A stretch of 51,610 bases of DNA from a virus, in the IMG/VR virus record IMGVR_UViG_3300019487_000008, positions 1 to 51,610 of that record; one strand, written 5' to 3'. The translations under genes were made by a program, and so were the position numbers. The notes beneath the pieces were generated by a model. The model did not search any database, was not told the origin of the DNA, and saw only the letters and a program-made list of their open reading frames with translations. Within the stretch, counting starts at the first letter, position 1. Every line of letters begins with the position of its first letter. This document shows positions 1 to 51,610 of this stretch, in pieces.

Positions 1-123
1 ATGGGCCATCAGAGGCAGTCCTCGCATTCCTGCTGCTCTGCGGCGGCCTTCCTATCCCACATGCTAGTACCCTGTCACCGGGTCACGCCCCCGGTCCACT
101 TGATGTTGAAGTTTTCGATGGAG
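1..123. repeat. terminal direct repeat, copy 1 (identical to 51488-51610)
   Basis: Read directly: atgggccatcagaggcag...gttttcgatggag is present at both window ends, 123/123 identical by eye. Confidence 0.9.
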
Positions 124-1863
124 GGAGAACTCCCCAGGAGTGAGCGGCCTTGAGAGCACGTCGTCTGCGTAGGCCATCGCGTCGATCAGGTCTCGGGTCT
201 GTCCGGTAGGGTACTCGACCAGCTCTTGGATGGCGTAGCCAGTCGTGGGGCGGTTGTAGTACCAGAGGCCCTTGGCGTGGGGTCCCTGGAGAGACCGGAT
301 GCGGGTGTCTTTGTCACGACCCTTGGGCTTGAGCGGGATGAACTGGATCTGGAAGGTGGGGTGGCGGCTTCGGAGGATTTCAGACCAAAGGGGCGCGTAG
401 ATGGCTGAGAAGTTGACCTCCTCGATGGCGATGGTGTCGGTGGCCCAGCGTTGTCCGAGGACCACCAAGTGGTCGAGGACGGTGAGGGGGTCTTCGCGTA
501 GGGGGATGGCATCGAGGACGAAGGTACGGCCCCAAGGGTCGCGGGCGAGGACGACAATGCCATTGCGCGCGCGAGGCTCAGCGTTGCGTTCGGTTTTCTT
601 GGAGGGTGCAGGGTCGAAGAAGATGGCCTTGGTCATTCGAGAAAGGGGGATCCTGGGAGGCGGAGGGTCGTCGTCCCAAGCGAGGTCTGCGTGGACGGCC
701 TTGGAGTCGTAGTGGTCGCGGTCGATGACGAACTCGGGCTCGTCGTGTTGGTCGTGAAGGACGGCGCCGTAGTGGATCCAGTCGTGGTCGAAGGAGGTCT
801 CGCGGCCGACCCTGGGGATGCACTGATACTGGGCCGCGAAGATGAAGGGGTCGGATTCGTACATGGTCTTGGCGAGTTCGGTGGGGATGCGGGTGGGGAA
901 GATGGATCGGCCAGCCACCACGTCAGGCTCGCCGGTTTCGGGGTTTTCGAGAAGGGCGCGTTGGTAGATGCGGTACTCGTTGGGCCACTTCTGGACCATG
1001 TGGCTGTATACGTCGTGGTAGCCCCAGCGTGTGCAGCAGATCAGTTGGCAGCCTCCTTCGGCAGGGCGTTCGAGCGGGCGGCAGTGGTCTACGAAGTGGA
1101 TGGCGTCCTCCATGATGGCTGTAGATTGGGAGGCGGGCTCGCCGATGATGTCGTCGAGGACCACGTGGGTGAAGTGCTTGCCGGTGTGGGAGCCCCCGAT
1201 CCCGAAGGGCTCGAAGGTCAGCTCGGAGATGTTGAGGGACTCGCGGCGCAGGAGGAGGCCGGTGTCGCCCCATTTCCAGGTGCGGGGGAGGCTGACACCT
1301 TGGTTGCGGTCCAGCTTGGAGAGGCCAGGGGGTAGGCGTTCAGGCCAGATGACCTGATACAACTCAGAGCGTTCGATGACCTGCTTGAGAGAGCCGATCC
1401 ACGATTTCACCTTGGCTTCCGACTCGGAGAAGATGCCCACGGTGATCTCTGGGTCGAGGGTAGCGCGCCAAAGGCAGTTGGCTCTGGTGGCGAGGCTGGA
1501 CTTGAAGGATTCGCGCGGGACAATGAGCATGAGGCGACGCCAGCTCTGTGACACTTTGTCGCCCTCAGCGACCGGGCGTTCGACCACCTCGCCGCCCTCC
1601 AGCTTTATCAGTCCCCAGGCTGAAAGGAACCGGCAGATGTCCAGGTGGAGGGGCGCGTAGAGGTCCCGGCAGCCGCAGACCCAATAGCTGAACAGGTAGA
1701 GGCCGAGTCCGCTGCGATCCTCGAAGATGGCGCGCAGCCGGGTGAGCTGGTTGGAGGCCAGCTCGTGGGCTCGTCCTTCATCGTGATCGAGGGCGTCGAG
1801 CCAGCCTAGGGCCTCCCGGTCGAGGCCGGCGGGGTCAGGCTGCGGGGTCGGGTCCAGGCTCAC
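64..1863 (-). CDS. terL: terminase large subunit
   Basis: 599 aa. ATPase-type motifs (HVVLDDIIGE Walker-B-like, CCTRWG coupling motif) and C-terminal RNaseH-like nuclease acidic motifs (FFDPAPS, IAIEEVN, DLIDAMAYA). Follows a small HTH ORF; the portal lies downstream across the circular junction. Confidence 0.85.
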   Translation of the reverse strand: MSLDPTPQPDPAGLDREALGWLDALDHDEGRAHELASNQLTRLRAIFEDRSGLGLYLFSYWVCGCRDLYAPLHLDICRFLSAWGLIKLEGGEVVERPVAEGDKVSQSWRRLMLIVPRESFKSSLATRANCLWRATLDPEITVGIFSESEAKVKSWIGSLKQVIERSELYQVIWPERLPPGLSKLDRNQGVSLPRTWKWGDTGLLLRRESLNISELTFEPFGIGGSHTGKHFTHVVLDDIIGEPASQSTAIMEDAIHFVDHCRPLERPAEGGCQLICCTRWGYHDVYSHMVQKWPNEYRIYQRALLENPETGEPDVVAGRSIFPTRIPTELAKTMYESDPFIFAAQYQCIPRVGRETSFDHDWIHYGAVLHDQHDEPEFVIDRDHYDSKAVHADLAWDDDPPPPRIPLSRMTKAIFFDPAPSKKTERNAEPRARNGIVVLARDPWGRTFVLDAIPLREDPLTVLDHLVVLGQRWATDTIAIEEVNFSAIYAPLWSEILRSRHPTFQIQFIPLKPKGRDKDTRIRSLQGPHAKGLWYYNRPTTGYAIQELVEYPTGQTRDLIDAMAYADDVLSRPLTPGEFSLHRKLQHQVDRGRDPVTGY

Positions 1864-2455
1864 TGTCTGTCTCGCCGGCCGTCTCGTCGGAGGCCGGGTT
1901 GGTGGTGGGGTCGGGCGGCCCCACGAACGGGATGCCGGTTGAGAGGGTGGAACGGACCCGCGACTCCAAGGGGCGCATCCCTGCGAGGACAGGCTTCAAG
2001 GTCTCCACCATGTTGGCCATCTTGCCGATCGAGTCCACGAAGGATTCGGGGAGCTGGACGTTCACGGTGGCGCCTTCGTGGTCACGGCCATCGCTGGGCC
2101 TGGGGAGGGTGCGATCGACCCACCACTTGGCGGTGGAGAGGCGCGTGGGGATGTCCTTGGAATGGAGGCCGTCGTGTTCGAGGACCCGGATGGCCTCGTC
2201 GAGCTGCTCGATCATTCGGAAGCGGGAGACAACGAGGGCGCGGGTGAGCGAGCCGGCGGCCACAGCCTTGCGGTCCTGCATGTCTGGGTCGTGCAGGTCG
2301 AGGCCGCGGACGCGGTTCAACGGCAGGCGGAAGGCAGCGGCGATCTCGTGGTAGGAGACACCCACCGTCAGAAGGCGGGCGATGTGGTCGAGCTGGGTCT
2401 CGGAGAGGTGGATCCGGGAGGGCGCCTCGACGATCCGGCCGGAGACAGGGCTCAT
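1835..2455 (-). CDS. putative terminase small subunit (HTH protein)
   Basis: 206 aa with AGGAGGA SD just upstream. N-terminal HTH-like segment (ETQLDHIARLLTVGVSYHEIAAAFRL). 29-nt overlap with terL. Assignment is by position. Confidence 0.5.
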   Translation of the reverse strand: MSPVSGRIVEAPSRIHLSETQLDHIARLLTVGVSYHEIAAAFRLPLNRVRGLDLHDPDMQDRKAVAAGSLTRALVVSRFRMIEQLDEAIRVLEHDGLHSKDIPTRLSTAKWWVDRTLPRPSDGRDHEGATVNVQLPESFVDSIGKMANMVETLKPVLAGMRPLESRVRSTLSTGIPFVGPPDPTTNPASDETAGETDSEPGPDPAA

Positions 2456-2565
2456 GGGATCCTCCTGGTGTCGAGCAGGGCGGCCGTTGGGTCAGGCTGC
2501 CGGACTGGGGCGCGGCACAGATGTGACCTGGATCACAGGACCGCCACCTGTGCCGCCTCCCCAGC

Positions 2566-2609
2566 CAGCCTCAGCCTTCACGGCAGCCTCAGCCTTCACA
2601 GCAGCCTTC
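2566..2609. repeat. 18-bp tandem repeat (cagcctcagccttcac x2 plus a partial copy)
   Basis: cagcctcagccttcac at 2566-2581 and 2584-2599, then cagccttc at 2602-2609. Confidence 0.8.
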
Positions 2610-2691
2610 GGGCAGGGGAGCCTCCCCGTGAGGGAACTCTACCACGGTCTGGTGTGGGGTTTCCACTACATCATTTCCCGACAACCTTCTT

Positions 2692-2823
2692 GTTGCGCGA
2701 AAAACTTTCTGCCCGTGAGTGTTGCGCGAAATCCCTTGTGGTGGGTGAGGGGTTGCGCGAAAAACACTGTCGTGTGCCCCGCGGGGACCCCTCGACCAGA
2801 GAACCCTTTTGTTCCGCGAAAAG
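2692..2823 (+). promoter_or_regulatory. four phased copies of GTT(G/C)CGCGAAA
   Basis: gttgcgcgaaa starts at 2692, 2721 and 2752; gttccgcgaaa starts at 2811. Spacings are 29, 31 and 59 bp (about 3 or 6 helical turns). The sites lie 240-370 bp upstream of the terS start on the opposite strand. Confidence 0.5.
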
Positions 2824-2882
2824 GATTTCGCTCACGTTCGCCCCTGTGTGGAGGGTGGGGGCGGGTCGTTCCCGCGGGGACC

Positions 2883-2969
2883 TTCAGGCTGTGGCGAAAT
2901 GGGACACCCCACGGGGACCCCCACGAGGACCCCCACGGGGTGTGGCGAAATGGGACACTGCAGCCTGAA
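2883..2969. repeat. 18-bp direct repeat (tgtggcgaaatgggacac x2) bracketed by a 9-bp inverted repeat
   Basis: Direct repeats at 2890-2907 and 2941-2958. Inverted arms ttcaggctg (2883-2891) and cagcctgaa (2961-2969). Interior has ggacccccacg(g/a)g reiterations. Confidence 0.8.
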
Positions 2970-3246
2970 ATGGCGTAGGGAATACCCCACAGTTTGGCCC
3001 ATACCGTAGGGAAATAGCCCCATAATTAACCCCCCCTGGCGCCCCCCCGGTGTCGGTCCTCTGACAGCAGAGCCCAGCCCACCGGGCCGACCCCCCTATA
3101 GGGGGTATATCAGTAAACAAGCCTAACCCCTCGCCACCAAAAGGGAAATACCCCCTAATAGGCAATAGGACGGGGGGGCCTCATGCGTATATGGACGAGC
3201 GTACGTCCCCGCGGGGACGAACATCTGCGAACGTCCGTAGGGTTTT

Positions 3247-3285
<39 letters not shown>

Positions 3286-3345
3286 CTACCTACTAACAAC
3301 CAAAAACCCTTATCAATCGCCAGGGTTTATTGACATACCGATAGA

Positions 3346-3359
3346 CTCCGATATCGGAG
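3346..3359. promoter_or_regulatory. 14-bp perfect palindrome ctccgatatcggag (two TCCGAT half-sites)
   Basis: Read directly. Lies 10 nt downstream of a perfect TTGACA hexamer (3330-3335). Shares the TCCGAT core with the motif clusters at 7368-7413 and 8719-8836. Confidence 0.5.
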
Positions 3360-3395
3360 GGTGGTTTTCCCCACACCCCCGCGTCCCCCCCCATG

Positions 3396-3620
3396 CTTTG
3401 TAGGTTTTTCACCCCGTAGGCTCCCCACCCCGTAGGTCCAACGCTACGTAGGCCTAATACCACGTAGGGTCAGACCCACGTAGGACCACCCACCCGTAGG
3501 CCCCTCACCACGTGGGGTTTTAACCACCGTGGGTCAAACAACACGGGGGGTTTCACACCCGTGGTGCTTTGCACCCGTAGGGCTCCACACCCGTGGGGTT
3601 TTCCCCCCACCCGTAGGGTT
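3396..3620 (+). repeat. iteron-like array: 14 units of (C/A)C(C/A)CGT(A/G)GG core plus a variable ~7-nt spacer, 16-bp register
   Basis: GT(A/G)GG cores start at 3400, 3416, 3432, 3448, 3464, 3480, 3496, 3512, 3529, 3545 (degenerate), 3561, 3577, 3593 and 3613. All are in the same orientation. Confidence 0.85.
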
Positions 3621-3753
3621 TCCCCCACAAGCGTCAACGCTCGTCAACCCCCTGGGGGGCGCTGTGGCACCCTGCCACAGGAGTGGGGCGGAATGGTGCC
3701 CCATAGGGTGGGAAAGCCCCGTTCTAGCGCGCCGTGGGGGCCTCTGGAGTGGC

Positions 3754-3933
3754 ATGGCGATTGCAGTAGAAACCAAATGGCGCGATTGGGCTCGCGAGGC
3801 AGCTTCGGAGGGCGACCGCCGCTGGTGGTCGCGCTGCTGCGGTTTTGTCCGCTCGGCCGAGCGAATCTACAGGGAGATCCGGCTCACGGAGCCCTGCCGG
3901 TGTGACATTTGCAGTGAGCCCGAGAGGAGGTAA
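3754..3933 (+). CDS. hypothetical small Cys-containing protein
   Basis: 59-aa ORF from the internal ATG of track ORF 3529-3933, with GGAG upstream. Its stop sits just before the SD of the next gene. First plausible ORF after the repeat region. Confidence 0.35.
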   Translation: MAIAVETKWRDWAREAASEGDRRWWSRCCGFVRSAERIYREIRLTEPCRCDICSEPERR

Positions 3934-3938
3934 GGACC

Positions 3939-4208
3939 ATGACCTATCGCACCTACAACCCACACGACTGTACCAGTTCCGGCTACGAGGCACGCTCCAC
4001 GTCGCACGGCCGCATCATCGTCACCTACCGCACACGGTGGCGGTGGGAATTGACCGGGCGCTCCTGGAGCCTGCCGAGGGATGCTACGCGGCGCGGGCTC
4101 CGGTATACGGCAGTTGAACTCGCGGAAGCAATCTGCAAGGTAGATGAGTGTCTGGAGGAAGGGCGGAGTCCCGGCCGATTGCTCCGCAGGGGAATCGTCG
4201 TCCGGTGA
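3939..4208 (+). CDS. hypothetical protein
   Basis: 89 aa with strong SD GAGGAGG upstream. No motif recognised. Confidence 0.55.
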   Translation: MTYRTYNPHDCTSSGYEARSTSHGRIIVTYRTRWRWELTGRSWSLPRDATRRGLRYTAVELAEAICKVDECLEEGRSPGRLLRRGIVVR

Positions 4209-4279
4209 GGATCGCCATATCCCCGATCCCCGCGAGCCTGACGGCGCGGGGATGCGGGATCGGGTAAGGAGTAAAAAAC

Positions 4280-4909
4280 ATGACGAGGAACGCGAAGGAG
4301 AACGACTATTGCCCGGTGATTGCCGCCTTCATCTGCTCCTGGAACGATTCGCTCCCCGATCAGGATCGCACTCGGCTACTCACACCGCTGCTGCCGCGGC
4401 TAGTCGGCACGCGTTCTACGCCCGAAATCGAGCAACGCCGCAGCTACCTGGCGCTCGACTGGCTGGTGCGCACGTATACGTCGGCGTGGCTCGACCTCGT
4501 GGAAGCGTGCAAGGCGGATGCCGCAGCCCTGCGCGCGCTGGCACCCGTGCTCGACGAGGCGGCGGCAAAGAGTGCGCTCTCGACGATCCGGCATGCGCGA
4601 GACGCCACGTGCGACGCGATGTACGCCGCGTGGGCCGCGGAAGACCCCTGGGACTGGGACGAGAGGGCTGCGAAAGACGCCACGTGGGCTGCGGCGGACG
4701 CCGCGATGTACGCCGCACAGGCCGCGTGGGCTGCTGGGGAGGCCGCGTGGGACGCGGGGGACGCCGCAAGGGTCGCCCGGGCCGCCGGGGCCGCTAGGGC
4801 CGTTGGGGCCGCCTGGGCCGCCAGGGCCAGGCTGCGTCCGGTCGTCATAGACCTCCAGGCGAGCGCACTCCGGCTCATCGACTCCATGCTCGCAGAGCAC
4901 GCGGCGTAG
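4280..4909 (+). CDS. Ala/Trp/Asp-rich repeat protein
   Basis: 209 aa with SD AAGGAG. The C-terminal half is degenerate helical repeats (MYAAWAAEDPWDW, ATWAAADAAMYAAQAAWAAGEAAWDAGDAARVARAAGAARAVGAAWAAR). All six frames are open here because of composition. Confidence 0.6.
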   Translation: MTRNAKENDYCPVIAAFICSWNDSLPDQDRTRLLTPLLPRLVGTRSTPEIEQRRSYLALDWLVRTYTSAWLDLVEACKADAAALRALAPVLDEAAAKSALSTIRHARDATCDAMYAAWAAEDPWDWDERAAKDATWAAADAAMYAAQAAWAAGEAAWDAGDAARVARAAGAARAVGAAWAARARLRPVVIDLQASALRLIDSMLAEHAA

Positions 4910-5661: not shown

Positions 5662-7114
5662 CAAGGGCGAAGGGCTGTTCTACTACCCCTATCCAGAACT
5701 ACTAGCGGTGATGCGCCGCCGGTTCAATCGGGGGCGCAAACCCAACTGGGTAACAAAGAAATGGGAAGTCTCACGGACACCCCACCCTCGAATGTCGTTT
5801 CAGGATCGCGTGCTCGAATACGCGTGCCCTTGGACGGCGCGACACGAGGAAGCCCATCTCGCGTTCTCTCGCGAGAGGCCCGCGCGGTCCGGCAGTCCCT
5901 TTGAGCGGGCCTGCCTGAACGCAAGCGAAGACGCACGAGTCAATACGCTTGCCGCGCGGGCTGGGGTTAGCACGTTTGGAGGGCCATTCGTCGCAACTGC
6001 ACTGATGCAAGTCGCGAAAATGCCCGACCCGAGACTCCGGTATCTAGGGGCTCTGTCGGTCACAGGGTCTCTCTACGGGGACGGTCAGACTCTCACTGCG
6101 GAAGCTATAGCTGAGGCATTGAACCTCCCTCCCGATGCTATGCCGATGCTAGCTTCCCATGCTGCGCGGATTCGAGCAGCTGCGGCCGACCCGCAAGTAG
6201 CCGAAGCAGTAGGCCGGGAACTGTACCGCCTGTTCGGCGAGGCTGGCGAGCCTGAACCCGAGTCCAAGCCGAAGCCCGAGTCCGAGTCCGAGTCCGAGTC
6301 CAAGCTTGAGCCTAAGCCTGAGCCCTCCGACAAGAGTAAGGATGACGAGGGCGAGGGGAAGGCTAAGGGAGAATCGAAGCCCTCAAGCCCCAGCCCGCTC
6401 CTGAAGGCTTCAATCACTTGGTACCAGGAAGCAAAGGGAAAGCGGGGCCCTGTTGATGATACGGAGATTGGAGTACTCGCCGATACGGAAATTGGAGTAC
6501 TCGCGCGACCGCCTCGGGTAGTGTGGGGCAAGATGCAATTGCACACGCTGCCGTTGACCCGCCTCACGACCCAGCCTGGAATGCGCTCCGTGACATACCG
6601 TGACTCGGGGGACCGTATTGACCCTGGGCGCCTCGCGCTCCCGAACCGGTTTCGCACCGTGACGAGCGGGCGGACGGGACGGTGGCGTGGAGGGTCGATT
6701 CTCATTGACACGTCTGGGTCAATGAACATGAAAACAGATGTACTACTGCAAGCTATCGCAGGCATGCCTGCGAGCACCGTAGTGGCGATGTATTCCGCGC
6801 GAAGGGGGGGGACCGGCACCGTAACAGTCCTAGCCCGCGGTGGGCGGATCGCCCATCATGAAGTCATTAGGCGGGCGCGGGCCTATGCAGGGCCCGAAAA
6901 CGTAATTGATGGCCCTGCCCTAGAGTGGCTCGGGCACCAACCCGGGCCGCGATGGTGGGTCAGCGACGGGAAAGCAACGGGGGTGCCAGCCGAGCGCCCC
7001 GAGAGCGGGGAATCCGCTCTCCAAGTCAAAGAGGCCGCCGCCATCGCAGCCTACCACCGGATTCGCCGAGTCGAGACGCTTGAAGACTTCGCCGCCCTCA
7101 TGCGGCGCCGCTGA
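5654..7114 (+). CDS. HExxH metallopeptidase-like N-domain + VWA-like C-domain protein (MoxR partner; DUF2201-type architecture)
   Basis: 486 aa from the internal ATG with GAGGAG upstream, overlapping the ATPase stop. N-terminal RHEEAHLAF...LNASEDARVNTL. Acidic/Lys low-complexity linker. C-terminal MIDAS-like ILIDTSGSM and later VSDG. Confidence 0.75.
   Translation: MSDKGEGLFYYPYPELLAVMRRRFNRGRKPNWVTKKWEVSRTPHPRMSFQDRVLEYACPWTARHEEAHLAFSRERPARSGSPFERACLNASEDARVNTLAARAGVSTFGGPFVATALMQVAKMPDPRLRYLGALSVTGSLYGDGQTLTAEAIAEALNLPPDAMPMLASHAARIRAAAADPQVAEAVGRELYRLFGEAGEPEPESKPKPESESESESKLEPKPEPSDKSKDDEGEGKAKGESKPSSPSPLLKASITWYQEAKGKRGPVDDTEIGVLADTEIGVLARPPRVVWGKMQLHTLPLTRLTTQPGMRSVTYRDSGDRIDPGRLALPNRFRTVTSGRTGRWRGGSILIDTSGSMNMKTDVLLQAIAGMPASTVVAMYSARRGGTGTVTVLARGGRIAHHEVIRRARAYAGPENVIDGPALEWLGHQPGPRWWVSDGKATGVPAERPESGESALQVKEAAAIAAYHRIRRVETLEDFAALMRRR
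6278..6301 (+). repeat. (gagtcc)x4 hexanucleotide repeat inside the VWA-protein linker
   Basis: Encodes ESESESES; read directly. Confidence 0.85.
6458..6505 (+). repeat. 24-bp tandem duplication inside the VWA-protein linker
   Basis: gatacggagattggagtactcgcc followed by gatacggaaattggagtactcgcg. Encodes DTEIGVLA twice. Confidence 0.9.
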
Positions 7115-7367: not shown

Positions 7368-7413
7368 ATCTTCCGATTTCGTGAGCCGATCGGAGAAATT
7401 ATCTTCCGATTTC
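7368..7413 (+). promoter_or_regulatory. two copies of ATCTTCCGATTTC flanking a ccgatcgg palindrome
   Basis: atcttccgatttc at 7368-7380 and 7401-7413, with gagccgatcggagaa between them. Located in the leader of the 7461 operon. Confidence 0.55.
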
Positions 7414-8780: not shown

Positions 8781-8836
8781 TCTTCCGATTTCCAGGGGGG
8801 CCCTCCCATTGGTACCCATTGACATCTTCCGATCTC
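8719..8836 (+). promoter_or_regulatory. cluster of five (A/G)(T/C)CTTCCGAT(T/C)(T/C)(C/T) motifs
   Basis: Copies at 8719-8731, 8735-8747, 8753-8765 (ggcttccgatcct), 8780-8792 and 8824-8836. The last copy lies in the spacer of the promoter at 8819-8848. Confidence 0.6.
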
Positions 8837-8848
8837 GCCCTGTAGAAT
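8819..8848 (+). promoter_or_regulatory. sigma70-like promoter, TTGACA-18-TAGAAT
   Basis: Perfect -35 (8819-8824) and TAGAAT (8843-8848). The ATG of the nuclease gene is only 9 nt after the -10, which implies a leaderless or near-leaderless mRNA. Confidence 0.5.
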
Positions 8849-24647: not shown

Positions 24648-26096
24648 GTGCCCAAGGCCAACCAGGGGTGGGTGGACGCGGAGTTCCAGTTCGTCCGGTT
24701 GCCGGACGAGACCCTGGGGGTCTACAACCTCTGGGACACCGAAGCCACAGCGCGGCTCGCCCACTGCCTCCACCGGGAGCTGGTCCAGACGGGCCAGCTC
24801 TCATGGTTCCAGGAGGGCCCCCAAGCTGTCCAGCCTGCGGTTCTGGCGATGCAGCGGCGCGGCCTTCTGTTGGATCAGTCGGCCCACGACACCTCTCGGG
24901 CTCGCCTCCACGATGAGTTGCACGAAACCGACCGCAGCCTTCGCGCCCATACCCCACCAGGCATCAGCTTCGACTCTCCCACTCAGCTCTCCAAGTGGCT
25001 GTTCAACCCCCCCACCGAGGGTGGTCTCGGCCTCAAGCCGGCCAAAATCACCGACAAGGGCCACCGGCAAGTTGACTTGGAGTCGCTGGTGAGGGTCCTC
25101 CAGGGACTCCGCAAGCGAGACGCCGCCGCCCGCCCGATCCTGGAGCAACTCTTCCACCGGAGCCGACTCAAGACCCTGCTGGAGAGGTATTTCGATCCCA
25201 TGGTGGGGCACGACGGCCGCGTCCGCGCCACAGTCAAGATGTTCGGCACCAAGACCTTCAGGTTCTCGTATGCGCGGCCGGCCCTCCAACAATTTCCCGA
25301 CAAGCTGCGTCGGATGTTCATAGCCTCCCCAGGCCATCACTTCGTCTCTTCGGACTATTCTCAGCTAGAGGCCCGGATCATGGCTGTGCTGGCCCAGGAC
25401 CGAGTGAGCCTCGACGCTTTCACTCGTGGTGAGGACATCCACGACCTGAACTCCAGGGACCTGTTTGGGTGGTCGCCGTCAGACTGGGAAGCCCTCAATC
25501 CAACGCAACGCAAGGCGGCTCGCAACTTCGCAAAAACCTTCCTGTATGGTCTTCAGTACGGAGGCCGAGCCGAAACCATGAAAATGAAGGTCTTTTGCCC
25601 GTGCCCCTTGTGTGTGGAAGAGAACCCTCCCACCCTCGACCTGAAGCGCAGTGAGATCGCCCTTGCTGAGCGTCGGTGGATGGCCCGGCACCCTGCGGTG
25701 CCTCGCTACCAAAGGCAAGTCTCCGAGCAGGTCCGTTCAACCCGGTCCTACCTTCACCCACTGGGGGTGCGCCGCTACTTCGCCAAACCCTGGGGCAACG
25801 AGCTGGAACGAGAGGTCAAGAACGTCCCTATGCAGATGGGCGCGGCCATCCTGATGGTCCAGGCCCAGGTCAAGTTGCACCAACTAGGAGTCCCGGTGTG
25901 CCTTCAGCACCACGACTCGTTCTTGTGTGAGGTGCCTGACGAGCAGATCGCCGAGACCTCGACCACCTTGCGGGAGGTCATGGAAGCCCCGGTCCCCCAG
26001 ATGGGAGGGGTGAGGTTTCCCGTCACAATCTCAGTAGGCAGGAATTGGGCCGACCGCACCATCGACAACCCTGAAGGCTTGGGAGCCTCCACATGA
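24648..26096 (+). CDS. polA: family A DNA polymerase, fragment 2: ExoIII + polymerase domain
   Basis: 482 aa. YNLWDTEATARL (ExoIII), SSDYSQLEARIMA (motif A), RKAARNFAKTFLYGLQYGG (motif B), LQHHDSFLCEV (motif C). Only a GTG start, with no clear SD. Confidence 0.8.
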   Translation: MPKANQGWVDAEFQFVRLPDETLGVYNLWDTEATARLAHCLHRELVQTGQLSWFQEGPQAVQPAVLAMQRRGLLLDQSAHDTSRARLHDELHETDRSLRAHTPPGISFDSPTQLSKWLFNPPTEGGLGLKPAKITDKGHRQVDLESLVRVLQGLRKRDAAARPILEQLFHRSRLKTLLERYFDPMVGHDGRVRATVKMFGTKTFRFSYARPALQQFPDKLRRMFIASPGHHFVSSDYSQLEARIMAVLAQDRVSLDAFTRGEDIHDLNSRDLFGWSPSDWEALNPTQRKAARNFAKTFLYGLQYGGRAETMKMKVFCPCPLCVEENPPTLDLKRSEIALAERRWMARHPAVPRYQRQVSEQVRSTRSYLHPLGVRRYFAKPWGNELEREVKNVPMQMGAAILMVQAQVKLHQLGVPVCLQHHDSFLCEVPDEQIAETSTTLREVMEAPVPQMGGVRFPVTISVGRNWADRTIDNPEGLGAST

Positions 26097-27937
26097 GACA
26101 CCTGCGGCTAGTCCACAGGGAGCTGACCGCCGAAGAGTGCAAACTCGTCTTGTCCCAATGGGAGCCCAAGATGGAGCAACTCTTCCGGGCGGCCGAGGCC
26201 ACTCCCCCTGACGCCTGGAGCCAGGACTACATCAAGCAGGCCAAGCTGATCCACACCATCGGGGTCTGCTGGGAGGCCATGCCCGACGAGAAGCGGCAGT
26301 CGGCCCAAGCCCGCGCCCTCCGGTATGTGCCTATGCTCTCAGCGAACCCTCGGGCCTTCGAGGTGTTCATGGACATGATCGTTCAGCGGTGGAGCAGCCG
26401 GCCCTACGAAGACATCGCCCGAGCCCTCCAGGTGGGCCTCTTCAAAGAGCAGGACTTCGTAGCCCTCGACGAAGAGAAACCCTACTTGGAGGTGGGAGGT
26501 TGGCTCGGGGACTATGTGGACTGGGCCAAGGCCGGCGAGTGCCCCATAGCGTTCCACTTCTGGGCTGCTGTGGCGTTGATTGGCGCGGTCGCCAAGTTTC
26601 GGGTCTCCATCGACCGCAGGGCCTATCGACTGAGACTCAACCACTATGTTTTTCTGTTTGGCCCGCAGGGGACCGGGAAAGGCCAAGCCAAGTCCGCCAT
26701 GCTCGACATCCTCAGGAGGCTGAATCGAATCATCGACCCGGAACACCCTGAGGACGCCCACCACGCTCGGATCCGCCTGATCCCAGAGGACACCAACCAA
26801 TCCGCCATGCTCAGACTCCTGAAGCCTGAGCCAGCCCATAGCGCCAAGGTCGGCTCGCTGGAGTCAGCCATGGTGGATTCGACGGGATTCCTGGTGCTGG
26901 ATGAGTTGGCCACTTTCTTCTCTAAGGACGCCTTCCGGATTTCCAAGACCTTGCCTTTTTTGGTGACCGCCTACAGCGAAGAGGAGTACGACTACTACAC
27001 CGTCACAGGCGGTCACATCCATCTGGAGAACCTGGCCCTCTCCATGCTAGGGTGCTCGACCCTGGACTGGATCAAAGACGCCATCACTCCGCTCTTGATG
27101 CACGGCGGGTTCCTGGACAGGACGCAACTGATCTACCGCACCGAGACCCCCCGCGTCTACTCGACGCCAGGATTCCTGGATCCTGTGCGAGCCATTCAGC
27201 TCGCTCACGGGTTGCTGGAACTGGCCACCCTGGAGGAGCCAGTGTTGATGGCTGGGGACCTCGGAGCCCTGGAGTGGTACGACGATTGGTACCGCAAGAT
27301 CCCCGTCACCGATCACATAGAAATGGCCCGCCCAGGCCAAGAGGGGGACTCGTTCTCCACCTCCTCGAAGCGGCAAGCCAACCACCTGTGGAAGCTGGCG
27401 GCCATCCTGTCGATCTCAGAGGGGACCCACTACCCCTGGATCACTCGCGCCCACATGGAGAAGGCCGCGAAGCTACTGAAACTGGAGCGTGAGCACTCCG
27501 CCAGCTTCTTTCAGATGGTGTCGAGGTCTCCTGAAGGCGCCATCCTAGAGAGACTCCTCCAGGTGCTCTGGCGCATCGGCAAAGGCGACGCGGTGCGCTG
27601 GGCAGACCTCATTTCCCGAGTGAAAGCGTGGAAGGGCTTGCGCGGCAGATCGCGGCTCCTGTTGGAGTACCTCTACACCATGCAGGACGCCGGCATGGTG
27701 AAACTCGTCAAGATGGTCGGGAAAACCGGGCAACCGACCCGGGGCTTTGCGATCCGCCCTCTCGTGGAGCCCAGGGTGCAACTCGAACTCCCTGCGACCC
27801 CGGACCCGGCCCTGCTACCTGACGAGGGCCCTGAGGTCGTGCAGGCCACCGGCGGGCCCATGGAGTCCGAAGCCAAGAGGCGTCGCCGGCGGGAATGGCC
27901 TGATCCACAGGATCCCGATTTAGACGAGGGCACCTGA
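26093..27937 (+). CDS. DUF3987-like P-loop ATPase, putative replicative helicase
   Basis: 614 aa. ATGA overlap with the polymerase. Walker A FGPQGTGKG, Walker B FLVLDELATFF. The overall layout resembles DUF3987/SF3-type helicases. No primase motifs seen. Confidence 0.55.
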   Translation: MRHLRLVHRELTAEECKLVLSQWEPKMEQLFRAAEATPPDAWSQDYIKQAKLIHTIGVCWEAMPDEKRQSAQARALRYVPMLSANPRAFEVFMDMIVQRWSSRPYEDIARALQVGLFKEQDFVALDEEKPYLEVGGWLGDYVDWAKAGECPIAFHFWAAVALIGAVAKFRVSIDRRAYRLRLNHYVFLFGPQGTGKGQAKSAMLDILRRLNRIIDPEHPEDAHHARIRLIPEDTNQSAMLRLLKPEPAHSAKVGSLESAMVDSTGFLVLDELATFFSKDAFRISKTLPFLVTAYSEEEYDYYTVTGGHIHLENLALSMLGCSTLDWIKDAITPLLMHGGFLDRTQLIYRTETPRVYSTPGFLDPVRAIQLAHGLLELATLEEPVLMAGDLGALEWYDDWYRKIPVTDHIEMARPGQEGDSFSTSSKRQANHLWKLAAILSISEGTHYPWITRAHMEKAAKLLKLEREHSASFFQMVSRSPEGAILERLLQVLWRIGKGDAVRWADLISRVKAWKGLRGRSRLLLEYLYTMQDAGMVKLVKMVGKTGQPTRGFAIRPLVEPRVQLELPATPDPALLPDEGPEVVQATGGPMESEAKRRRRREWPDPQDPDLDEGT

Positions 27938-27966
27938 ATTGACGGGGGGAAATCCCTACAAGGTCC

Positions 27967-29004
27967 CTACGTGGGCTCCAGCCCCAGCCCTTCCTCCAGC
28001 GCCACCAACACCCCGCCGAGCCGCTGGAAGGCATCCCACCGGACCTGAATCTCTGGGGTGGAAACCCCCCGGACCACGCCCATGGCCCTGGCCACGGCCG
28101 TCTCCCAGCTCCCGTCGGCGACGCCCCGGGCGACTCCGATGAGTCCGTCGCGGCCTCCCGTGACGATGCGGCGGGCCTCCCGGTCCACCTGGATGTCGTG
28201 CCAGAAGACCCGCCCCTGGTGCTCGCCGTAGTCGATCTGGCAGCCGGCCTCAGCGCGCCCCTCGCTGGGCCACGGTGGTACAGACATGGGTACAACGCAG
28301 GTGAATCGGCTCCCCAGGCTCGGCTTCACCTCCCCGCGAATGACCCCATCCAGGGGTGCCGCCGGGCTCAGGGCCTCCATGAAGGCATGGGTGTGCAGCC
28401 ACGGCCACCCGGCCTCGAACCCCTGGACCTTGGGGCCTCCCAGGTCCACGGAGGCTTGGAACAGGCCAGAGAACCCGAGGTCTTTTAACTCCGTGGCCAA
28501 TTCCCCCCACACAGGAGCGAGCGGGCCCCCGACCAGTTGGTCGTGGGGGAATCGCCCCAACATGAGAGCCGCATCCACCTTGGGTCCAATTCCACCCGGC
28601 CATGCCCCCTGCTCCACCACCAGCAGGTGGGGGGCGTGGATCTCTCCGTCGGCAGCCTCGAACCAGCCACCGAGCCTGACTGAGCCGTCCACCTGCCCCC
28701 GTCGTGGCGCCCTGGCGAGTCTTCGTTGGGCTCCCCGGCTCGGGACCCAAAGGTCCCGGACATCGCTCACCAGGACGCGATCTCCACGCTCCGCTTCAGC
28801 CAGCAGCTCGTCGAGAGGGAAGTTACCCACCTGCTCGTCGAGCTGGAGGAAGGCTCCCTGGAAGGCGGGGCGAAATCCCCTCACCCAGACCATCAGCTCG
28901 TGCCGCTCAGGCGCGGGACCGTTCGACAGGAGGCCCAGCCGGTGGGCCAACGGGACGAGGCCGTGGGTGTGGGTGATGACGAGGATGCAGGCCGCGTCCG
29001 CCAA
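27967..29004 (-). CDS. PurD-like ATP-grasp fold protein, degenerate
   Basis: 345 aa with TTG start. Colinear resemblance to glycinamide ribonucleotide synthetase: ILVITHTHGLVPLAHRL vs VLVIGxGGREHALAWKL; LGFSGLFQASVDLGGPKVQGFEAG vs GFLYAGLMI..PKVIEFNCR; RRIVTGGRDGLIGVARGV vs VVTNGGRVLCVTALG. The FNCRFGDPE-type residues are not conserved. Confidence 0.4.
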   Translation of the reverse strand: MADAACILVITHTHGLVPLAHRLGLLSNGPAPERHELMVWVRGFRPAFQGAFLQLDEQVGNFPLDELLAEAERGDRVLVSDVRDLWVPSRGAQRRLARAPRRGQVDGSVRLGGWFEAADGEIHAPHLLVVEQGAWPGGIGPKVDAALMLGRFPHDQLVGGPLAPVWGELATELKDLGFSGLFQASVDLGGPKVQGFEAGWPWLHTHAFMEALSPAAPLDGVIRGEVKPSLGSRFTCVVPMSVPPWPSEGRAEAGCQIDYGEHQGRVFWHDIQVDREARRIVTGGRDGLIGVARGVADGSWETAVARAMGVVRGVSTPEIQVRWDAFQRLGGVLVALEEGLGLEPT

Positions 29005-51247: not shown

Positions 51248-51496
51248 CTATGCGAATCGGCGGCGTAGGTCAATCACCCCACCTTGGGGGACCTGGACCC
51301 GAGAGGTGGAGGCGATTTCAGGGACGATCAGGTCGCGCTCCTCGTGGTAGTGCCGGGGGAAGCCGGGGAGGGACCGGGCCTCTTCGTGGAGGAGGAGGGC
51401 GGCTTCGCTGGATTCGTCGAGGTCTTCGAGCTGGCGGAGGATGGACTGCCAGCGGCGCCAGGTTTGGAGGGTCATGCGCCAAGCGATATGGGCCAT
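51248..51496 (-). CDS. hypothetical protein
   Basis: 82 aa from the ATG at 51496, which has GAGGA upstream (the track ORF starts at 51514). The first late gene after terL once the contig is circularised. Its start lies in the terminal repeat. Confidence 0.4.
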   Translation of the reverse strand: MAHIAWRMTLQTWRRWQSILRQLEDLDESSEAALLLHEEARSLPGFPRHYHEERDLIVPEIASTSRVQVPQGGVIDLRRRFA

Positions 51497-51610
51497 CAGA
51501 GGCAGTCCTCGCATTCCTGCTGCTCTGCGGCGGCCTTCCTATCCCACATGCTAGTACCCTGTCACCGGGTCACGCCCCCGGTCCACTTGATGTTGAAGTT
51601 TTCGATGGAG
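51488..51610. repeat. terminal direct repeat, copy 2 (identical to 1-123)
   Basis: Same 123-nt string as 1-123. It covers the 3' end of terL and the 5' end of the next late ORF, so assembly overlap of a circular or permuted genome is more likely than a physical DTR. Confidence 0.9.

Follow-up and report, generated by a model that had tools for sequence, protein, structure and literature searches.

The control region and its repeat array

The virus record IMGVR_UViG_3300019487_000008 from IMG/VR, analysed here over its full length of 51,610 nucleotides (hereafter the window), contains a 1.3-kb non-coding control region (2456 to ~3753), from which the terS-terL late operon runs leftward and the early and replication genes run rightward. 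Within this region lies an array of 14 short repeat units (3396-3630, + strand, consensus CACCCGTRGGGTTT), flanked by the least stable duplex segment of the genome. The array is real and statistically significant, and its motif recurs as a cluster in related phages, arguing for a functional multi-site element with predicted protein binding. It belongs to a known kind, the iteron and short-repeat arrays of phage control regions, of which it is a new and uncharacterised example, and it most likely marks a replication origin or a genome-end signal.

All 14 units have the same orientation and are in register, starting (at the C of CGTRGG) at 3399, 3415, 3431, 3447, 3463, 3479, 3495, 3511, 3528, 3544, 3560, 3576, 3592 and 3612, with successive offsets of 16 bp (seven times), 17 bp, 16 bp (four times) and 20 bp. 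An earlier note on this DNA had described the same number of units, orientation and offsets, which is borne out, its coordinates being higher by one. It had given the conserved core as CCGT(A/G)GG, and this stands for the hexamer CGTRGG, which is exact in 11 of the 14 units with an agreement of 13-14 out of 14 at each position, but not for the full heptamer, which is exact in only seven. Of the remainder, four have ACGTRGG and three are degenerate (TTGTAGG at 3398, ACGGGGG at 3543 and CCGTGGT at 3559). The core is preceded by a C/A-rich stretch with the consensus CACCC and frequently followed by G-T-T-T, while positions +6 to +12 of the unit are variable.

The spaced pair CGTRGG-N10-CGTRGG occurs seven times in the window, every time within the array, compared with 0.06 expected; of the 100 dinucleotide-preserving shuffles behind this expectation, none attained seven. 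Exact CGTRGG is present 11 times in the ~200 bp of the array and ~75 times in the other 51.4 kb. The array is non-coding, as its period of 16 is not a multiple of three and the overlapping open reading frames (ORFs) lack the third-codon-position GC signal (GC3) of this genome's genes, which rules out a coding repeat. A CRISPR array is likewise ruled out by the dimensions of the units (core of 9-12 bp and spacers of 4-7 bp, versus CRISPR repeats of 23-50 bp and spacers of 26-72 bp). No tRNA was found over the array, and an Rfam search at E <= 1 returned only two chance-level eukaryotic families. With 14 units and several additional copies, the element goes well past the three or more tandem short sites in non-coding DNA by which iterons are recognised.

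Each unit is pseudo-palindromic (CACCC-N2-3-GGGTG), with CGTRGG as its best-kept part. The ideal unit is a dyad of 12-13 bp, the perfect palindrome being CACCCTAGGGTG, and two of its one-off variants are CACCC-GTA-GGGT in the window and CACC-GTA-GGGTG in a related phage (contig L225, see below). This dyad symmetry suggests a dimeric protein that would bind double-stranded DNA at each unit, with neighbouring dimers 14-16 bp apart, which fits the units better than one ring subunit per site.

Further copies of the motif are scattered through the control region. A solitary copy lies directly left of a (CA)n tract (3235..3253, + strand, CCGTAGGGTTTTCCACACA), two others lie at 2973..3012 (+ strand, GCGTAGGGAATACC at 2973 and CCGTAGGGAAATAG at 3004), and another (3732..3740, + strand, CCGTGGGGG) is situated 14-22 nt before the ATG of the first early gene. 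Three copies with a 12-bp period form an inverted mini-array on the - strand (2901..2940, CACACCCCGTGGGGGTC / CTCGTGGGGGTC / CCCGTGGGGTGTC), which is flanked by two copies of a different repeat, GTGGCGAAATGGGACAC. A position-weight matrix built from the units gave only chance-level matches outside the control region, with the exception of two copies on the - strand at 27944..27975 (reading GGGGGGAAATCCCTACAAGG and TCCCTACGTGGG on the + strand), located in a convergent gap directly past the stop codon of a helicase gene.

According to nearest-neighbour energies, the least stable duplex windows of the whole genome are 3275-3354 (80 bp) and 3238-3357 (120 bp), with z ~4, and they lie ~40 bp left of the array. 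The segment 3238..3357 is a candidate DNA unwinding element, which includes a perfect (CA)17.5 microsatellite (3248-3282) and a CTAC-rich stretch of lower GC content (3283-3345).

The first gene of the late operon encodes a putative small terminase, TerS (1835..2455, - strand, 206 aa), which has an N-terminal helix-turn-helix (HTH) and lies 0.94 kb from the array. It is followed by the large terminase TerL (64..1863, - strand, phrog_38) and, at the opposite end of the window, by the portal and capsid genes. On the other side, the end of the array is 124 bp away from the first early gene (3754..3933, + strand), whose product is a Cys-rich protein of 59 aa; conservative and synonymous changes in a 92%-identical metagenomic fragment (L231) show that this is a real gene.

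Several other repeats are present in the control region. Four copies of GTTGCGCGAAAA with ~30-bp spacing (2692-2826) lie nearer to terS than the array does, and the two copies of GTGGCGAAATGGGACAC (2891-2958) have three similar counterparts (GTGTGGCGAAATGCCAC) in the related contig L036; both repeats are candidate late-promoter or TerS sites. The region also contains GTCCCCGCGGGGAC palindromes, and GC-rich palindromes of the form GTCCCC-(N0-2)-GGGGAC (2777, 2870 and 3205), the latter recurring in relatives (L036 at 2838-2884, L039 at 3000-3175, L225 at 1540 and L230 at 870-965). No sigma-70 promoter or terminator above chance was detected between 2300 and 4300.

Motif clusters in related phages

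The lineage is uncultured and has been seen only in metagenomes. A DNA similarity search against 50,697 phage records gave no match, and among cultured phages TerL matches only podovirus terminases (20-27% identity), including those of the cyanophages A-4L, Pf-WMP3 and PP. A total of 72 metagenomic TerL homologues were found, the best being P0002 with 65% identity, whose contig (ERZ27301951) has an intergenic region of 967 bp. Relatives at 92% identity come from JGI 3300019458 and ENA ERZ27251176. The sole clue to the host is a distant TerL relative (34% identical) on a contig of a Phycisphaerales metagenome-assembled genome. The relatives compared here are TerL-bearing metagenomic contigs, which were found by an alignment-based scan of IMG/VR, a single-protein TerL scan having given none. 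A helicase-based locus search returned relatives at 21-28% identity only.

The motif cluster is present in the control regions of three relatives. In L225 (TerL 55% identical), 8-9 tandem units with a 14-bp period (1815-1935, unit TTCACCGTAGGGTG in the window's orientation) have the same orientation relative to terL as in the window, and the motif occurs nowhere else in 13.7 kb. In L035 (TerL 64%), ~10 copies of CCGTAGGG or CCCTACGG are irregularly spaced beside the gene that comes first in the leftward direction, with a (TCTA)4 tract after them; the copies occur in both orientations, as expected from the dyad nature of the unit. In L033 (TerL 49%), the palindrome TACCCTAGGGTA or a close variant of it is present ~8 times at spacings of 12, 14, 34 and 59 bp, within an AT-rich stretch that lies 0.2 kb upstream of terS. 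The array of L225 mixes CCGTAGGG and CCCTAGGG units, so that the variants of the three relatives are regarded as one motif family. In L225 and L033 the motif is confined to the control-region cluster (13-19 kb examined). Cluster and terS are separated by 0.94 kb (window), 0.22 kb (L033), 1.26 kb (L035) and 1.9 kb (L225).

Since the core recurs in the same non-coding region of phages whose TerL proteins are 49-64% identical, the sites appear to be under selection, in agreement with the earlier proposal of a selected binding site rather than a recent tandem duplication. That proposal also held that the 16-bp register was strict, placing successive sites on alternating helical faces and allowing the DNA to be threaded along an oligomeric ring. 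This part is not sustained by the relatives: the period is 16 bp (~1.5 turns) in the window and 14 bp (~1.33 turns) in L225, the spacing in L033 is a mixture of 12, 14 and 34 bp, and the copies in L035 are irregular and in both orientations. Helical phase is thus not conserved, and the conserved quantity, as read from these contigs, is the presence of many sites. The earlier note had listed a lack of conserved position or periodicity among relatives among the things that would refute its reading; judging from the sequences compared, part of the lineage keeps position and motif, but neither period nor orientation.

The cluster lies beside an easily melted segment in the window and in all three relatives. 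Calculated locus-wide for the relatives, the stability minimum is ~70 bp away from the cluster in L035 (z = 4.0), inside it in L033 (z = 5.5) and ~130 bp away in L225 (z = 3.0). The motif cluster was not found in L036, L032, L034, L039 and L223, of which L036 shares GTGGCGAAATG repeats with the window. At the equivalent place of the control region, simple tracts are present in L036 ((GT)~20, 3181-3222), L034 ((GT)n-G15-A5-(CA)n, 640-710), L035 ((TCTA)4, 838-856) and L223 ((CTA)n/(TA)n, 6030-6080), and L230 has an assembly N-gap (814-858). The candidate GCGCGAAA was rejected as a lineage-wide motif after a census of the contigs.

Scans of IMG/VR and JGI metagenomes for the periodic core pattern returned unrelated tandem repeats only and no close relative of the phage, the sole protein matches in the contigs recovered being a TerL 21% identical (L076) and a PolA 27% identical (L187). 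The unrelated viral contig L076 contains four 16-bp units of GGATCGTAGGCCCAAT (reverse complement, 210-290), and L007 (IMGVR_UViG_3300034062_008014) contains five to six copies of CCACCCGTGGG with ~29-bp spacing (5809-5960), beside a very AT-rich stretch. Among other observations on the relatives, several TerL homologues carry inteins or LAGLIDADG insertions (L227 at 894-3764, L040 and P0065), and HNH endonuclease genes are found near the array in L035 (1262-1698) and L225 (926-1276 and 2983-3432).

Proposed replication origin and alternative functions

The array may function as an origin, a genome end or an operator. The reading that we tentatively prefer, as one possibility among several, is a set of origin iterons beside a DNA unwinding element. 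In this mechanism, an initiator, probably a dimer at each site, would coat the 14 sites at 3396-3630 as well as the opposed ones at 2901-2940; melting of the low-stability stretch that separates the two sets (3238-3357, with (CA)17) would follow, and the phage's own replisome would be loaded, comprising a DUF3987 helicase/primase of the superfamily 3 (SF3) type, a split PolA, a Sak4-like protein and an exonuclease. The candidate initiator, put forward by inference only, is the 614-aa DUF3987 primase/helicase-type ATPase itself (26093..27937, + strand), which may act through a C-terminal winged helix, as do the SaPI (Staphylococcus aureus pathogenicity island) Rep and P4 alpha proteins.

An origin is consistent with an array far beyond chance, with retention of the motif in L225, L035 and L033, with the position of the cluster beside a stability minimum in all four phages, and with the opposed mini-array across the unstable segment from the main array. 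The phage encodes its own replisome, and the scanned ORFs include no DnaA-, O- or RepA-like protein, as the earlier note had also reported, nor an integrase or partition protein. Two motif copies directly follow the helicase stop codon, and residues 480-556 of the DUF3987 protein were modelled by AlphaFold as α-β-α-α-β-β (predicted local distance difference test score, pLDDT, 64-84), so that the C-terminus is tentatively a winged helix.

Among known systems, SaPI origins consist of opposed iterons flanking an AT-rich region, which are bound by a winged helix in the C-terminus of the Rep helicase, an initiator that requires no separate loader (PMC9371898). The window resembles them in having many short iterons, some of them opposed, on both sides of easily melted DNA, and in the tentative C-terminal winged helix of the modelled DUF3987 ATPase. 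However, SaPI iterons are 5-6 nt long, are present in 6-12 copies and lie immediately downstream of rep, whereas the window has a core of ~12 bp, a 16-bp period and 14+3 units located 22 kb from the helicase gene, and the gap between its opposed sets is ~455 bp, in contrast to the short AT-rich centre of SaPI origins. In P4, which replicates with the alpha protein, a second iteron locus (crr) is distant from ori, and the two motif copies at 27.95 kb give the window a similar arrangement. In the lambda ori, the initiator gene O itself carries 4-6 iterons of 19 bp, a dimer occupying each one, and an AT-rich unwinding region adjoins them. This origin shares with the window the tandem, internally dyad-symmetric sites beside such a region, but the 14 units of the window are intergenic and no O homologue was found.

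A number of observations weigh against an origin. The cluster is linked to the terS-terL module in four phages, while the helicase gene of the window is 22 kb off. The origins of mosaic phages usually adjoin the initiator gene, an adjacency that fails here, the genes beside the array being small ORFans that are not conserved among the array-bearing relatives. Because these early genes are non-homologous while the motif is nearly identical, comparison of the contigs favours a binder encoded in the conserved late module or supplied by the host. Iteron periods are typically 21-22 bp (two helical turns), compared with 14 and 16 bp here, and the copy number of 14 is high for iterons. The adjacent stability minimum is only partly independent evidence, since non-coding control regions are generally AT-richer. 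GC skew changes sign at the array region, but gene orientation switches at the same place, and the polarity of the skew (coding strands C-rich) is opposite to the usual leading-strand rule; owing to the coincidence with gene orientation, it was set aside as origin evidence. The modelling of the winged helix is also weak, as the whole-protein mean pLDDT of the DUF3987 model is 48 and a single-sequence model of its C-terminus lacks the wing.

The closest analogue in form is found at the left end of T7, where, past the 160-bp terminal repeat, 12-13 CCTAAAG-type cores (with variants CATAAAG, CCTAACG and TCTTAAAG) lie in the same orientation, mostly with 12-14 bp spacing and variable spacers, and an AT-rich promoter region comes after them; to the left of the right-hand terminal repeat there is another, looser set. 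These short-repeat arrays, SRL and SRR, share with the array of the window a core of 7-9 bp, variable spacers, a period of 12-16 bp, a single orientation, about a dozen copies, and a non-coding location upstream of early genes and beside an AT-richer region. By analogy, the array could lie on the early-gene side of a direct terminal repeat (e.g. between 2940 and 3396) and serve concatemer processing or packaging, or act at the first-entering end, which we consider fairly unlikely. Such a role would agree with the podovirus matches of TerL and with an array that travels with the conserved terS-terL while the adjacent early genes differ. Independent assemblies of relatives also break repeatedly here: L037, L038 and L229 end ~270-430 bp upstream of terS, L230 has its N-gap, and the 92%-identical fragments L231 and L232 begin just right of the array (window-equivalent 3830 and 3913), which suggests either repeat-caused length heterogeneity or real genome ends. 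Microsatellites and tandem repeats explain these breaks equally well, however, and the identity of TerL to podovirus terminases is only 20-27%. The T7 arrays abut a mapped 160-bp terminal repeat and run in the same direction, whereas the window is known from a circular assembly, its 123-bp end overlap across the TerL 3' end is no terminal repeat, and its second set is inverted. The T7 core CCTAAAG is unrelated to CACCCGTAGGG, and the units of the window, unlike those of T7, are pseudo-palindromic. The comparison is thus an analogy of form, not of mechanism, and to our knowledge the function of SRL and SRR has not been established. Use of the array as a TerS recognition site (pac or cosB-like), where the HTHs of a TerS oligomer would engage successive repeats to start packaging, is very unlikely. 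The array is always in non-coding DNA heading the terS operon, 0.2-1.9 kb from terS, and the N-terminal HTH is conserved across the lineage, but L036 and L034 have the same TerS family and no motif cluster, which speaks against the earlier suggestion of TerS as the binder. In addition, the TerS recognition helices differ between the window and L225 despite the shared motif, the repeats nearest terS (GTGGCGAAATGGGACAC, shared with L036, and GTTGCGCGAAAA) differ from the array motif, and dyad units with a variable period disfavour one ring subunit per repeat.

Alternatively, a phage regulator might polymerise on the sites in the manner of omega, CopG or Arc, shutting off or timing an early promoter or setting the early-to-late switch, an operator or silencer role that we regard as unlikely. 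It would suit the 124-bp distance to the first early gene, the extra copy just before its ATG, and dyad units packed at 14-16 bp, a density suited to neighbouring dimers. Ribbon-helix-helix (RHH) proteins form such assemblies on centromere and operator arrays (the omega heptads of pSM19035 and the ParR-parC systems of R1 and pSK41), where dimers coat tandem sites into a filament. The closely packed sites, sometimes in mixed orientation, are similar, but Pfam and PHROG scans of the early genes revealed no ParA or ParM partner and no RHH protein. The phage does appear to use repeated operators, as a second tandem motif, (G)ATCTTCCGAT (+ strand, at 7368, 7401, 7956, 8719, 8735, 8755 (degenerate), 8780 and 8824, some copies 16-18 bp apart), has its copy at 8824 within the 18-nt spacer of a near-consensus sigma-70 promoter (TTGACA(8819)-18-TAGAAT, 8819-8847) directly upstream of the PD-(D/E)XK exonuclease gene; this set probably represents operators for middle genes. 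At the array itself, no sigma-70-like promoter is detectable (2300-4300), the 9-14 sites are far more than in typical operators, and there is neither a conserved regulator gene beside the array across the four phages nor an HTH or RHH family match among the early proteins. Binding of a host factor (by titration or recruitment), or action of the sites in a transcript or single strand instead of the duplex, is as improbable as recognition by TerS. A shared host protein would fit a motif kept across phages with differing neighbour genes, and a lack of conserved helical phase is irrelevant for RNA or single-stranded DNA. The minus-strand RNA of the array folds better than shuffles (z = -4.3), and from its sequence each unit could form an ACCC-GUA-GGGU mini-hairpin. 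Against this, there is no Rfam match, folding of the + strand, which is sense for the early genes, is at chance level (z = -1.1), and core positions -1 and +3 show no paired variation across units. A quite unlikely but broader proposal is that the motif cluster and the simple tract nearby ((CA)17 here; among the relatives, some have (GT)n, (TCTA)4 or (CTA)n/(TA)n and others low-complexity DNA rich in G or C) together form an undescribed bipartite cis element of an uncultured phage lineage possibly infecting Planctomycetota. A protein encoded in the conserved module would cover the opposed dyad sites, and the melting- or Z-DNA-prone tract between them would be the entry site of a self-loading SF3 helicase or the site of genome-end cleavage, the sequence of the tract being free to change and its unusual structure selected.

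Genome context and significance

The window begins and ends with the same 123 bases (1-123 and 51488-51610), a stretch that takes in the 3' terminus of terL. This marks the window as a complete phage genome assembled as a circle, with ~51,487 bp of unique sequence, and the overlap, lying over terL, is no terminal repeat of biological origin. A second assembly of this phage, from a Logan/ENA sample, has 51,626 bp, 16 bp more than the window. The rightward genes encode an AAA_5 ATPase, the PD-(D/E)XK exonuclease, the Sak4-like protein, a DHH phosphoesterase, the split PolA and the DUF3987 ATPase, and the genome looks like that of a virulent phage. Sequence searches of the PDB gave no matches for the helicase or TerS and one chance-level match for the TerL profile. 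Tandem repeats with periods of 21/42 bp and 9 bp (4665-4830) are present inside an early gene for a 209-aa protein (4280-4909), where they encode an alanine/tryptophan-rich repeat (...AAWAA...).

The array is the clearest cis-acting landmark of this phage lineage known only from metagenomes. Its consistent place beside a low-complexity tract is unusual and helps explain the fragmentation of assemblies at this point. The 12-bp site could be used to fish for the cognate protein, and the region offers a concrete place to seek the origin or the genome ends. Across the relatives, the 16-bp tandem, the 14-bp tandem, the scattered inverted copies and the perfect palindrome form a natural series, in which the number of sites appears to be selected and the helical geometry does not.

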